Shown here: piece by piece, positions 7,326-61,640 of the stretch
Position numbering within the stretch: the stretch's first letter is position 1
Layout of the letters: the number at the start of each line of letters is the position of its first letter
Assembly (NCBI GenBank): GCA_951406725.2
Contig: OX597823.1
Coordinates: 11,098,001 to 11,162,000, forward strand
Direction: 5' to 3'
Length of the DNA stretch: 64,000 bases
Origin: Octopus vulgaris
Taxonomy: Eukaryota
The notes under the pieces: model-generated
The model's database searches: none
What the model was told of the DNA's origin: nothing
The model's input: the letters and a program-made list of their open reading frames with translations, nothing else
Program-made: the position numbers and the translations under genes

Positions 7326-7496
7326 GGCGCAGGATTGGCTGTGTGGTAAGTAGCTTGCCTACCAACCACATGGTTCTGGGTTCAGTCCCACTGCGTGGCA
7401 CCTTGGGCAAGTGTCTTCTACTATAGCCTCGGGCCGACCAAAGCCTTGTGAGTGGATTTGGTAGACGGAAGCTGAAAGCAACCCGTCGTATGTATG

Positions 7497-7553
<57 letters not shown>

Positions 7554-7760
7554 TTGTGTGTCTGTGTTTGTCCCCCTAGCATTGCTTGACAACTGATGCT
7601 GGTGTGTTTATGTCCCTGTCACTTAGCGGTTCGGCAAAAGAGACCGATAGAATAAGTACTGGGATTACAAAGAATAAGTCCCAGGGTCAATTTGCTCGAC
7701 TAAAGGCGGTGCTCCAGCAAGGCTGCAGTCAAATGACTGAAACAAGTAAAAAGAGAGAGT
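7326..7760 (+). mobile_element. tRNA-headed SINE family A (CORE-like domain, internal TA/TG microsatellite), full length
   Basis: A-box TGGCTGTGTGG, B-box GGTTCAGTCCC, CORE-like CCTTGGGCAAGTGTCTT, and 3' GGTGCTCCAGCA...GAAACAAGTAAAA-GAG tail. Multiple copies in the window. Confidence 0.9.
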
Positions 7761-9337: not shown

Positions 9338-9785
9338 ACATCATCATCATCATCATCATCGTTTAGCGTCCGCTTTCCATGCTAGCATGGGTTGGACGGT
9401 TCAACTGGGGTCTGTGAAGCCAGAAGGCTGCATCAGGCCCAGTCTGATCCGGCAGTGTTTCTACGGCTGGATGCCCTTCCTAACGCCAACCACTCCGTGA
9501 GTGTAGTGGGTGCTTTTTACGTGCCACCAGCACAGGTGCCAGACAGAGCCGGCAAACGGCCACGGACGGATGGTGCTTTTTACGTGCCACCGGCACGGGG
9601 GCCAGGCGAGGCTGGCAATGGCCAAGAACGGATGGTGCTTTTACGTGCTACCGGCACGGGGGCCAGGCGAGGCTGGCAACAGTGACGAACAGATGGTGCT
9701 ACGTGCCACCAGCACAGGGGCCAGGCGAGGCTGGCAACGGCCACGCACGGATGGTGCTTTTTATGTGCCACCGGCATGGAAGCCA
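9338..9785 (-). mobile_element. Family C (RTE-LINE 3'UTR-type) young copy with internal ~62-bp minisatellite
   Basis: (GAT)n tail on the minus strand and AGGAAGGGCATCCAGC motif. GGTGCT-start units occur at 9509, 9572, 9634, 9695 and 9753. Confidence 0.85.
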
Positions 9786-10789: not shown

Positions 10790-12210
10790 AGTGGTTTGAA
10801 AATGATGCACAACCACAGGTTGGTATGCTGGGAAATAAAGATAGGTCTGTCATAAAAATAATAAAATTACATTTTTTAAATGCAAAAGAAGCAAACAGAA
10901 ATTTGAAATGTAAAGTCTTGATAATTCTGCTTCATTTATTGATAATTTTCTGTACTTTATAGTATTTACATTTAATGTATAATATATATAATTTCCTATT
11001 TTATATATATATATTTTTATATTTTACAAAGTGCATCAAAATATTTTTATGTATTTTAAAGTACACCAATCAGTGCAAAAAATTGTTTTGAAATCCTTGG
11101 TTTAAGTAAATGAAATATTTCAGCAGAAAAAAGTTTACATTCACTTCTGTGTTCCTTTAGATAGTGAGATAGTGCTCCCTTTTTAAATGTGCAGTTTAGT
11201 AAGAAGAGGAAGAGTAGCTCCCATGACCTTCTTCAAGGTATTCTGAAACAAGCTGGAGAAAGCTATTTTCAAACCTGACATGAATAACTGCAACACTGTA
11301 TACTTCATGAAATTGCTCCTTCCTCTGAGGCATTTAGTAGTGTTAAACGAGACATTGGCTTAAGTCAACCACCCAAAGAATGATTTTGTATAGGTTTCCA
11401 CGTAATTTATGTCTACCAAATTTCACTTACAAGATAAAATGCTTTACAAGTTCAAATCTCTGTAAGATTGTAACAGCTCTTTTCAAAATTCCAGCTAAGG
11501 TTAATAAAAATAAGCCTATCTCATGTACTGATGCTGATAAATTCAAATGCTTGTGCCACCAGTATTTGTAATCTTGTACAAATTTTCAGACTCTGTTTTA
11601 GGGTGGATCTTTTTTTTTATATCAGAGATACTTGAAATAACCTTCGTCGTATATATGTACATATATATATGTGTGCGTGTGTTTGTGTGTCTGTGTTTGT
11701 CCCCCTAGCATTGCTTGACAACCGATGCTGGTGTGTTTATGTCCCCGTTACTTAGCGGTTCGGCAAAAGAGACCGATAGAATAAGTACTGGGTTTACAAA
11801 AGAAATAAGTCCCGGGGTCGAGTTGCTCGATTAAAAGGCGGTGCTCCAGCATGGCCGCAGTCAAATGACTGAAACAAGTAAAAGAGTAAAAGAGTAAAGA
11901 GTAAAGAGTATTTAAGAACCATCTAACAGATACTAGAAATGCAAATTGGTTGTAAAATCCCCAAGATCTTAAAGCGAAACCTTGCTACAGCCATTGTACT
12001 TTGTTCTTTTGAATGATACCCTCTTGAACGATGCACCCATCAACAACCTCGCTCATTTTATAATTCATTATGGTAAAGTGGTGACCAATTAGTAAGCATA
12101 TTGCATAATAATGACTACAAAGTACATCAAACAATTCATATAGATACAATTATCCAAGTTAGCAACTCTTACTTACTGCACTTGAGAAAATGTTAAAAAT
12201 CTGAGATATC
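10790..12210 (-). pseudogene. Highly decayed hAT (Charlie/Buster-like) transposase remnant, interrupted by a SINE
   Basis: Frame-shifted minus-strand patches (ILQRFEL; EEQFHEVYS...EYLE; LKEHRS...KPRISK) loosely resemble hAT catalytic and dimerisation regions. CAGTGGTT near 10789 may be a TIR. Confidence 0.35.
11644..11910 (+). mobile_element. SINE family A, 5'-truncated
   Basis: 3' half near-identical to 7484-7760, with a (TAAAAGAG)n tail. Confidence 0.9.
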
Positions 12211-16977: not shown

Positions 16978-17012
<35 letters not shown>

Positions 17013-17219
17013 GTTAATCCAAACAAGAAAACACAAAAAAAACACAGCAACACCAGGATGTGGAACAAATAAAGTATTATTGGATGCTCAGGAAAGAAGG
17101 GAAGAAGGAGGGTTTAACGTTTCGAGCGGAGCTCTTCATCGGAAACAAAGGAGAAGGAAAGATCCTGAGAAGGGAAGACAGAGGAAAAAAAATTGCTGGC
17201 GGTGCTCACGAGGTCACAT
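17013..17219 (-). mobile_element. ~207-bp Penelope-like (pseudo-LTR-type) element carrying a hammerhead motif, inserted at (TA)n
   Basis: Near-identical copy with the same ends at 39828-40032; internal minimal hammerhead motif. Confidence 0.7.
17112..17146 (-). ncRNA. Minimal type I hammerhead ribozyme-like motif
   Basis: GUUU-CCGAUGA-A-GAGC UCC GCUC-GAAA-C GU U-AAAC. Stem I is GUUU/AAAC, stem II 4 bp, and stem III the loopless palindrome ACGU. Confidence 0.7.
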
Positions 17220-17226
17220 CTGTAAT

Positions 17227-17298
17227 AACAGATTTCTTAAAAATTGTATACATATATATATATATATATATATGTATACAATTTTTAAGAAATCTGTT
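17227..17298. repeat. 72-bp perfect palindrome centred on (TA)n
   Basis: AACAGATTTCTTAAAAATTGTATACA(TA)nTGTATACAATTTTTAAGAAATCTGTT. Confidence 0.95.
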
Positions 17299-25482: not shown

Positions 25483-26111
25483 ACAAAATTGCATAATTGA
25501 ACATGCTTGGTACTGAATAGCAACAAAGTGAACCATCAACTGGCTGCTAATGTATGTTTGTATGTGTGTGTATCCTTTGTTATACAATTTTCTTTATAAT
25601 TTGCAATTTAACATTTTGATATTTTTTTTATCAATTTTTCTTTTTTGTTGAACATTAAAAGATGATGATGATGATGATGATGGTGGGAATGACTCTTTGT
25701 ATTTAGTTAGCTCTTTGCTTATTGGCAATATAATTTAGAATTTCTGCAATGAAAGAGGCTGGTTTATAACAATGAGATTTTTTTTTCTTCTTCTTTGGAC
25801 CGGACAAATTAGCTGATGGTAACTTACAAACTGATGATTCATCGTTTAGAATTAATTAACTAGGAAATATGAAATGATGAAATCTAAATTAAGAGGATTT
25901 GGATTGGAAAATATAACATGGTTGAGTAAAAAAAAAAATTAAAATATAATTAAGGTCTATAGATATACTCTGTAGTACATACATAGCATAGAAACAAAAC
26001 ATAGTTAATGCACCAGTAATTCATTAATTATAAGTGAGCTAAGTACAAAGATAGGTTCTCTAACATCTCACAAGCATTAGAAAACATTAAATCTATTTAT
26101 ATGGTAACAAA

Positions 26112-26370
26112 AAATCAATTTCCCAGCATGGATCTATATGAAAACAGGAAATCTATTTTTTAGTATGGATCTTTATGAAAACATGAAATCCATTTTCATG
26201 TGTGGATCTGCATAAAAACAAAAAAATTGTATTCCAGTATGGATCTATATGATAACATAAAATCCATTTTCCACTATGGATCTATATTATAACATGAAAT
26301 CGATTTTCTTTTATGGATCTGCATAAAAATTTGAACTCTGTATATCAGCATGAATCTATAGGAAAAGTTT
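26112..26370. repeat. 37-bp minisatellite, 7 units
   Basis: GGATCT at 26130, 26167, 26204, 26241, 26278 and 26315, and GAATCT at 26352 (exact 37-bp spacing). Confidence 0.92.
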
Positions 26371-36336: not shown

Positions 36337-36743
36337 TACTCATTTACTCTTTTACTTGTTTCAGTCATTTGACTGCTGCCATGCTGGAGCACCGCCTTTA
36401 GTCGAGCAAAACGACCCCGGGACTTATTCTTTGTAAGCCCAGTACTTATTCTATCGGTCTCCTTTGCCGAACCGCTAAGTGACGGGGACGCAAACACACC
36501 AGCATCGGTTGTCAAGCAATGCTAGGGGGACAAACACAGACACACAAACACATACACACACATACATATATATATATATACATATATACGACAGGCTTCT
36601 TTCAGTTTCCGTCTACCAAATCCACTCACAAGGCTTTGGTCGGCCCGGGACTACAGCAGAAGACACTTGCCCAAGATGCCACGCAGTGGGACTGAACCCA
36701 GAACCATGTGGTTGGTTAGCAAGCTACTTACCACACAGCCACT
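36337..36743 (-). mobile_element. SINE family A, near full length
   Basis: Reverse complement of the 7326-7760 sequence. Confidence 0.9.
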
Positions 36744-39787: not shown

Positions 39788-39827
<40 letters not shown>

Positions 39828-39831
<4 letters not shown>

Positions 39832-40027
39832 ATCCAAACAAGAAAACACAAAAAAACACAGCAACGTGAGGACGTGGAACAAATAAAGTATTATTGGACG
39901 CTCAGGAAAGAAGGGAAGAAGGAGGGTTTAACGTTTCGAGTGGAGCTCTTCGTCGGAAACATAGGAGAAGGAAAGATCCAAAGAAGGGAAGACAGAGGAA
40001 AAAAATCGCTGGCAGTACTCACAAGGT

Positions 40028-40032
<5 letters not shown>
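39828..40032 (-). mobile_element. Second copy of the ~207-bp hammerhead-bearing Penelope-like element in (TA)n
   Basis: Same termini as 17013-17219; flanked by (TA)n on both sides. Confidence 0.7.
39926..39960 (-). ncRNA. Minimal type I hammerhead ribozyme-like motif
   Basis: GUUU-CCGACGA-A-GAG CUCCA CUC-GAAA-C GU U-AAAC. Confidence 0.62.
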
Positions 40033-40085
<53 letters not shown>

Positions 40086-40399
40086 TATTAATAAAATAGT
40101 CATAGTCAGCATTAATACTTTGAGTATTTTATTCTAGGTGGCCTTACCATATTTTCTTGAACTAGTAACCAGGATCTATTTATCTATATATCTGTCTGTC
40201 AACACAAACACATACACACACTCAAACACACATATACATGGGCACAAACATGGCTATGTGTTTAGAAACTTAGCTTAGCAATCACATGGTTTTGGATTTG
40301 ATCACAGGACCCTAGAGAAGTGTCTATTAGCTTTGGGTCAACTAGTGCCTTACCAGTGAAATTTGGTAAACAGAAACTGTGGAGGCTCCTCAAATGATA

Positions 40400-60479: not shown

Positions 60480-61640
60480 AGGCCATGCAGCTGCTTCACA
60501 TATCATTTGGATTGATGCGGTTAATGTTCATTTCAACATATATAAGTTGGTGTTTGAAAGAAAAATGTGTAGGAAGGGAATTTCAGAAGATTGCTGTTCA
60601 AGGGAGGAAGGATTGGGTAAAATGTGTAGTACTGTGTTTAGGACATGAAACTCAAAAAATAAGAGGGTTGACTGGAGGAGAAAAGATAGTGGAGTTAGTT
60701 CTCCTGAGTGAAGAAGGCATGTCCTTAGTTTATTCAAATAAGCAGAAACTATATGAATAATGAACTAAGAGGCGCAGAAGTGGCTGTGTGGTAAGTAGCT
60801 TGCTTACCAACCACATGGTTCTGTGTTCAGTCCCACTGTGTGGCACCTTGGGCAAGTGTCTTCTACTATAGCCTCTGGCCAACCAAAGCCTTGTGAGTGG
60901 ATTTGGTAGACGGAAACTGAAAGAAGCCCGTCACATATATGTATATATATATATGTGCGTGTGTGTTTGTGTGTCTGTGTTTGTCACCCTAGCATTGCTT
61001 GACAACCGATGCTGGTGTGTTTATGTCCCCATCACTTAGCTGTTCGGCCAAAGAGACCGATAGAATAAGTACTGGGCTTACAAAGAATAAGTCCCAGGGT
61101 CGAGTTGCTCAACTAAAGGCGGTGCTCCAGCATGGCCGCAGTCAAATGACTGAAACAAGTAAAAGAGTAAAAGAGAGAGTAAGACACAATAAGCACAGAA
61201 CACTGATTCACAGAATCTGCCTGTGAACCAGTGGTTGATGCTGTTTGGTGTTGGAATTTTGCCAATCTATCAGTTGTGCTTCTTCTAGATGTAGTCTGAG
61301 AGTCTGTGTGTACAACAGTATCAGCTGCAGAATCCCATGGATACGAATAATACTCCACTATGAATCTTACTTGAGTTTTATGCAACATGTCTTTTTTATC
61401 AAGTCATTATAAATCAGCTCTCGAATACAACAATGGCTGAATGGTTCTTGGGTCCCTGTCAGAGAGATTGAACATGTAAATTAAAGATTTATACATTGTA
61501 TCATGCTGATTCAGTATGAGAATAGCATAGCATAAAGAGTTGCTTGCATGCTAATTCAGGTAATTCGGTTGTTTCAACAGCTGAATTCTTGTAATCAAAA
61601 CTGACAGGGATACACTCTTTTTACAAATCAGCTCACTAAA
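60480..61640 (-). pseudogene. CR1/Jockey-group LINE RT C-terminal remnant, split by a SINE
   Basis: LHKTQVRFIVEYYSYPWDSA lies upstream of the SINE; TTHFTQSFLP*TAIF*NSLP...NINR lies downstream. Confidence 0.65.
60771..61179 (+). mobile_element. SINE family A, full length, nested in a LINE remnant
   Basis: Complete head-to-tail match to family A; possible short TSD TAAGA. Confidence 0.9.

Follow-up and report, generated by a model that had tools for sequence, protein, structure and literature searches.

A small hammerhead-bearing unit in the genome of Octopus vulgaris is almost certainly the pseudo-LTR (pLTR) of an EN+ Penelope-like element (PLE) and not a stand-alone element, because the same unit lies at both ends of elements encoding a reverse transcriptase (RT) and a GIY-YIG endonuclease. 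The ORF-bearing element itself is ordinary and of a known class. The feature is real and was correctly spotted in an initial annotation made from the sequence. The new points are modest: variants of the hammerhead core at high copy number, a reversion of core position 4 to U in one subfamily, and a sharp 5' boundary, here called the wall, where most copies begin.

The genome comprises 2.8 Gb in 227 contigs, and the analyzed stretch of 64,000 nt (the window) is part of contig C10. The window's two copies of the unit (Table 1), annotated as near-identical, agree in 191 of 207 columns (92%), and direct reading of both finds neither TIR nor poly(A), again as annotated. Compared with the 3' end of an endonuclease-bearing copy (L061), copy 1 is identical in 194/207 columns and copy 2 in 197/205. 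The described lack of an ORF applies to the unit but not to the family, whose longer copies lead to an RT-endonuclease ORF. Similarly, the (TA)n said to abut each copy is present for copy 2 and at the 3' end of copy 1, but on the 5' side of copy 1 the next TA run is 27 nt away, within a palindrome that may be connected to this insertion.

Table 1. Features of the two window copies and related sequences (positions in the window unless a genome locus is given)
Feature	Position	Strand	Comment
Copy 1	17013..17219	-	Solo pLTR, 3'-terminal 207 nt of a PLE, very probably Neptune-type
Copy 2	39828..40032	-	Solo pLTR, 3'-terminal 205 nt; same element family as copy 1
Copy 1 hammerhead motif, minimal type I	17112..17146	-	Sequence reading; predicted fold
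Copy 1 stem I	17146-17143 / 17115-17112	-	GUUU/AAAC
Copy 1 core CCGAUGA	17142-17136	-	C4 at 17141
Copy 1 stem II; GAAA	17134-17124; 17123-17120	-	Sequence reading
Copy 1 predicted cut	Between 17116 and 17115	-	
Copy 2 hammerhead motif, minimal	39926..39960	-	Stem II with one C.A mismatch
Copy 2 core CCGACGA	39956-39950	-	C4 at 39955
Copy 2 predicted cut	Between 39930 and 39929	-	
(TA)n run	16991..17012	.	Joined to RNA 3' end of copy 1; target microsatellite
(TA)n run	39789..39827	.	RNA 3' end of copy 2
(TA)n run	40031..40088	.	RNA 5' end of copy 2; AT common with the element's first bases
72-bp perfect palindrome	17227..17298	.	Centred on (TA)n, near 5' end of copy 1
Young subfamily, L103-L110	e.g. 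G000:C10:97802000-97831999		Open ~949-aa ORFs, ~6.2 kb arrays
Dispersed repeat, ~400 bp	36339-36743, 60779-61175, 7336-7751, 11649-11800	Both	91-93% identical
Minisatellite, 37/111 bp	26069-26366		
GC-rich tandem array, 61 bp	9509-9776		

The family is large. A 20-mer near the 3' end of the unit has at least 9,896 genome matches, a lower bound on family copies, and the copy 2 unit gave 2,037 first-look candidates genome-wide. The 35-nt hammerhead pattern is far above chance, with 5,714 exact matches versus 0 for the reversed control. Seven of the top 30 unit matches extend beyond the supposed right end with common sequence. This extension is itself a repeat with 1,792 candidates, and the unit is present at 29 of 30 of its loci. 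Outward from the unit follow a CA-rich 3' UTR of ~2 kb, a GIY-YIG domain, the linker CSRSRCNTC (CxxxxCxxC), and an RT with YIDD; the RT segment alone gave 13,397 first-look candidates. Copies with 96% identity to window copy 2 likewise have RT and GIY-YIG domains upstream. Thus, the annotated solo pLTR of a PLE is borne out, and the proposed search for copies adjoining Penelope RT/GIY-YIG ORFs was successful (e.g., L061, L095, L096, L098 and L102).

The unit flanks the ORF on both sides in L095, L096, L098, L102 and L108-L110. Upstream pLTR repeats vary in length from <130 to 1,555 nt, those of L108, L110, L109 and L096 measuring 394 to 1,555 nt, and L103-L105 form a head-to-tail array of ~6.2 kb. 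These last examples belong to a young sister subfamily (320 exact marker matches, near-identical copies), whose longest open frames span 1,008 codons between stops. In L108, a single ORF of 949 aa from the first ATG contains YIDD and IYC...LYVG (RT and C-terminal GIY-YIG, respectively); Pfam matches to RVT_1 (E 0.001) and GIY-YIG (E 0.011) were both below the curated cut-offs. The endonuclease translations contain CIKCNLC ... EHLR ... ARHF, which we read as the CCHH motif of EN+ PLE endonucleases. Four sequencing runs, presumed to be of RNA, have contigs over the young pLTR and its 5' UTR that list no intron joint, although such contigs cannot show absence; they are also blind to starts, strand and level. 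At L062 (395-3712), a broken non-LTR retrotransposon, presumably with AP endonuclease, RT and zinc fingers, lies upstream of a truncated PLE copy. The host element very probably belongs to the Neptune clade, judging by its linker motif and TA bias; Nematis also has the linker motif. A Cx2-5CxxC linker between RT and EN is a described feature of the Neptune clade (PMC8557442).

To describe the ends of the unit, we surveyed 60 unselected copies in genome order, all of them from the beginning of contig C1; the count keeps an apparent duplication (L138/L139) and an inverted pair (L156). Inverted pLTR pairs also occur at L037 and L119/L120. The standard 3' end was found in 55 of the 60 copies, and TATATA lies within 14 nt of it in 53 of these 55, versus 3% of random window positions, which agrees with the annotated targeting of TA repeats. 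Free 3' ends read GGATTAAC(TT)TATATA. Since the pLTR-body junction reads GGATTAACTTTATATAC, or GGATTAAAATTATAC in the young subfamily, the RNA may be able to base-pair there with a TA target that has been nicked. Its 3' end is fixed, on (TA)n, and its 5' end is ragged. Of the fixed ends originally described, then, the 3' end stands; the 5' end is a ragged stair.

Relative to the predicted cut, 42 of the 60 5' ends lie at 88-112 nt, 14 are shorter, and 4 lie beyond, two of them by at least 657 nt. The wall is thus located ~110 nt upstream of the predicted cut, with 42/60 ends within its 25 nt. Loss of 5' ends is ~0.3% per nt before the wall (14/60 over 88 nt) and ~9% per nt within it (42/46 over 25 nt). 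In the subfamily of copy 1 (171 exact marker matches), 95 of the first 100 copies reaching GTGACC have their ends in a stair of 11 nt up to CTTTC, and 2 continue into the 3' UTR (both counted by eye). At the junctions of several rows of this subfamily, a short part of the element's own 5' end is duplicated, inverted or in direct orientation. The homologous TCACCATGTG, a motif without TA microhomology, is where 5 of 30 copies of the young subfamily begin, and 23 of the 30 extend >240 nt. A third related pLTR family (L014, 2487-2690), ~83% identical over the 3' 146 nt and with the core CCGACGA, carries CTTTCAGCATGT at the wall position.

As read from DNA ends alone, the wall is probably a transcription start site. 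The old and young subfamilies are 69-74% identical and keep the wall, but neither a hairpin nor TA homology is conserved at it, and it is therefore best read as an RNA 5' end. The CTTTC at the wall resembles, in our view, a TCT initiator. In Drosophila virilis Penelope, a start site (initiator) and an internal promoter lie inside the pLTR (PMC2377424). Plain 5' truncation, in which RT falls off near 205 nt at a hairpin or at TA microhomology and no start site exists, would account for the AT or TG microhomology used at many 5' junctions and for the broad spread of copy lengths beyond the wall, and in old subfamilies the wall sequence allows a hairpin of 4-7 bp (a weak GGUC/GACC pairing that overlaps it and is stronger in a TCATTCA variant). 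We regard this explanation as quite improbable: it does not fit the jump in loss at the wall or the young subfamily, which keeps the wall without hairpin or TA homology, and the CA/TA-rich UTR offers far more microhomology and has no pile-up of ends.

If the wall is a start site, solo pLTRs are likely to be reverse transcripts of uncut RNA extending from this site to the pLTR end. Pol II would start at the conserved CTTTCA(N2)ATGTG, ~110 nt upstream of the predicted cut, comparable to the internal promoter of Drosophila Penelope. The element's endonuclease would nick (TA)n, and RT would prime where the RNA reads ...GGAUUAAC(UU)UAUA, a sequence present both where pLTR and body join and at every passage from a pLTR into a TA flank. 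RT would then proceed to the RNA 5' end, and joining would trim 0-25 nt, often to TA or TG microhomology. Long copies and partial tandems could arise from read-through or circularized unit-length RNA. Cleavage by the hammerhead would be slow and restricted to dimers, such that most templates are copied intact.

Solos might instead be what remains when the two pLTRs of a full element recombine, as for solo LTRs, but this appears highly improbable. Some upstream pLTRs do start in the wall zone (L095, L102), and solo pLTRs of Adineta have been ascribed to recombination or deletion (PMC3846280). However, many upstream pLTRs are long, as given above, while solos are short; solos carry inversions and self-duplications at their 5' ends, as new insertions typically do; and the near-identical young copies already include solos.

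The initial annotation had also inferred a non-autonomous, possibly retrozyme-like family; as an independent lineage, this was not supported. Copies passing the wall numbered 188 in a first pattern search, and a search with the TCATTCA variant added 131 more. Of the variant set, 18 of 30 examined copies belong to the subfamily with U at core position 4 (U4), and five of these 18 align over ~900 nt or more, although CA-rich alignments can over-extend. Thus, the idea that the U4 subfamily is solo-only (it made up 2 of 100 wall-passing copies without the variant) was ruled out once the variant was searched. An influence of the base at position 4 (U4 or C4) on the solo fraction was also rejected, as no difference was seen. 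Long members occur in all three older subfamilies tested. In a tree of 68 rows, solo and long copies interleave, with 16 label changes, at least five of them forced by well-supported branches; the extraction pattern had dropped 9/39 solo, 6/36 long and 1/8 young loci, the two window rows were added, two pairs of loci are duplicates, and the bootstrap had not settled. Together, the long members and the interleaving argue against an independent solo lineage.

Nevertheless, solos might mostly copy themselves, keeping the internal promoter, being transcribed into the TA flank and being mobilized in trans, like SINEs or retrozymes. This is consistent with the proportion of short copies, 57/60 in the old family (~95% of old copies are solo pLTRs) versus 6/30 in the young subfamily, a gap that the single-step model leaves unexplained unless long copies were purged or extra solo-to-solo copying occurred, and that leaves room for either. 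It is also consistent with all 20 of 20 sampled U4-subfamily copies being short, with a weakly supported clade of six solos only (support 97/75), with L102, which is followed by two further solos spaced by (TA)n to give a run of three units, and with the Drosophila pLTR, which holds sequences needed for carcass transcription (PMC2377424). In addition, solos cluster on the tree beyond what shuffled labels give (0/500 as low). Against self-copying, each subfamily tested has long members (the 188 and 131 wall-passing copies, and 2/100 in the copy 1 subfamily), and the sampled units are dispersed monomers, the short-unit arrays typical of retrozymes not being seen apart from L102. We therefore consider predominant self-copying unlikely and retain single-step copying of start-to-end RNA as the preferred account.

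The hammerhead anatomy originally described on the minus strand was found as stated, copy 2 adding the C.A mismatch in stem II. The copies read GUUU CCGA(U/C)GA A GAGC UCC GCUC GAAA CG UU AAAC, that is, stem I GUUU/AAAC, one extra A after A9, stem II GAGC/GCUC, and a palindromic ACGU. The cut is predicted after GUU in both window copies. Position 4 is C in both, and all other core positions match CUGANGA ... GAAA ... UH; the canonical CUGANGA itself is found in the U4 subfamily. Old and young subfamilies are identical at 33 of 35 hammerhead positions versus 127 of 198 elsewhere (Fisher p 1.4e-4), the conservation relative to the rest of the element that the annotation had called for. The young subfamily has a GUC cleavage triplet and one U.U mismatch in stem I. 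The proposed check with hammerhead models gave nothing, the Rfam scan of the window containing no hammerhead family among the best 150 of 197 rows and microsatellite noise only.

The annotated U4-to-C variant is real in both window copies but not family-wide. Among the first 100 exact hammerhead matches, 83 read CCG. In a count by eye of the first 100 copies, 29 had canonical U4, and 22 of these belong to a single marked subfamily, which has 2,637 exact matches. C4 also occurs in the young subfamily, the third relative (L014) and the intact-ORF tandem arrays, and the U4 group nests inside C4 lineages on the tree; we conclude that C4 is the ancestral state, from which U4 arose later as a reversion to CUGA. 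Mere CpG decay is ruled out as the source of U4 by its linkage to a second marker (22 of 25 readable cases) and by the nested clade.

A second TA-anchored family of ~200 nt (L305-L316) has the core CUGUNGA (A6U), with at least 16,123 exact matches genome-wide. It reads U6 in 96 of the first 100 copies, with all four bases at position 7 (by eye), and its stem I is UCUUU/AAAGA, with a stem I G-C pair changed to C-G. From its sequence, this family looks like another PLE pLTR. Other hammerhead-like motifs, in L095 (minus strand), L022, L034 and L105, have U3-A8 cores (UUGAAAA, UUGACAA, UUGAUAA), the palindrome being CCGG or CUAG; next to the L105 array lies a canonical CUGAUGA motif. In a literature search of mainly open-access papers, we found no description of the family, of a U4C or A6U PLE hammerhead, or of a start-site wall in solo pLTRs; Lunse et al. 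2017 reportedly deals with PLE hammerhead variants and may already include U4C or A6U. The supplement of PMC4209133 may also show such core variants.

Whether these motifs cut was approached by folding and from copy ends. Shuffled sequences folded as stably as the monomer (z -0.45 to +0.23). In dimers, the active hammerhead is predicted at no better than -7.3 kcal/mol and is not the minimum-energy fold, an inactive duplex reaching -21 to -24. Every one of 100 copies with an anchor just 3' of the cut continues through it, and with a farther anchor there was no pile-up of 5' ends at the cut, 4 of 100 ends lying in the 21 nt 3' of it and 6 in the next 37 nt (by eye). The proposal that 5' ends mark the ribozyme cut was therefore rejected. 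Cleavage may still occur, since cut RNA re-ligated into circles would leave no footprint. Published minimal PLE hammerheads cut weakly even as dimers (PMC4209133), and a natural U4C viroid hammerhead has much lower activity in vitro that still allows infectivity (PMC3088659). On balance, slow but real cleavage seems slightly more likely than not in the octopus family.

The role of the hammerhead in PLEs is described as unclear (PMC8557442). Alternatively, the motif may be kept as a fold and not as a catalyst, with templates copied uncut, the motif serving as an RNA dimerization or RT-binding signal, and start-to-end pLTR transcripts seeding SINE-like or retrozyme-like elements. We think this doubtful, but it would fit the most successful families having fixed changes in the CUGA turn (U4C, A6U) and yet keeping the stems, a free position 7, GAAA and the palindrome. 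The natural C4/U4 pair in otherwise identical motifs, each in thousands of copies, together with the U6 sister family, is suited to asking whether catalysis matters. The wall offers a DNA-only estimate of a start site and a simple account of PLE hammerheads being mostly solo. In practice, CUGANGA-based descriptors miss C4 and U6 motifs, and repeat annotation could file solo pLTRs as unclassified SINEs.

Compared with known systems, the octopus motif is similar to the minimal PLE hammerheads of Cervera and de la Pena 2014 (PMC4209133) in its short helix I, extra base between 9 and 10.1, G10.1-C11.1 pair, and loopless palindromic 15.2-16.2. The published motifs are mostly single ones, "probably related to truncated PLEs". 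The octopus motif differs from them in the U4C core, the available text naming only C3U/G8A as a core change, and in a helix II of 4 bp versus 7-8. The viroid U4C hammerhead (cited in Perreault 2011, PMC3088659) has the same core change, but in the octopus U4C is found both in intact-ORF arrays and in genomic copies by the thousand, and the minimal motif that carries it has no evident compensating tertiary contacts.

Non-LTR retrozymes (PMC7229834; bioRxiv 10.64898/2026.07.22.740005) are likewise non-coding units of 150-450 nt with a type I hammerhead, are derived from PLE pLTRs, and can be common as monomers. They are, however, described as short tandem arrays with canonical hammerheads, whereas the octopus units are dispersed monomers with a minimal motif and a 94-96% match to ORF-linked pLTRs. 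Of these retrozyme traits, short head-to-tail repeats were not seen among the sampled octopus copies apart from the (TA)n-spaced run in L102, and a lineage independent of the ORF-bearing parent was not found in the three subfamilies tested.

The element as a whole is most similar to Neptune-clade EN+ PLEs (PMC8557442), sharing one ORF with RT, Cx2-5CxxC linker and C-terminal GIY-YIG, partial-tandem pLTRs, inverted and tandem copies, microsatellite bias, and a hammerhead in the pLTR. Unlike them, the octopus family has a CA-rich 3' UTR of ~2 kb, old copies that are ~95% solo, a sharp 5' wall, and a CCGA hammerhead core in most lineages. Some EN+ PLE families retain a spliceosomal intron, and none was seen in the octopus contigs, which cannot show absence. 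Finally, a start inside the pLTR would parallel the Drosophila virilis Penelope promoter (PMC2377424), where it was established by work on RNA and is here suggested by DNA ends.
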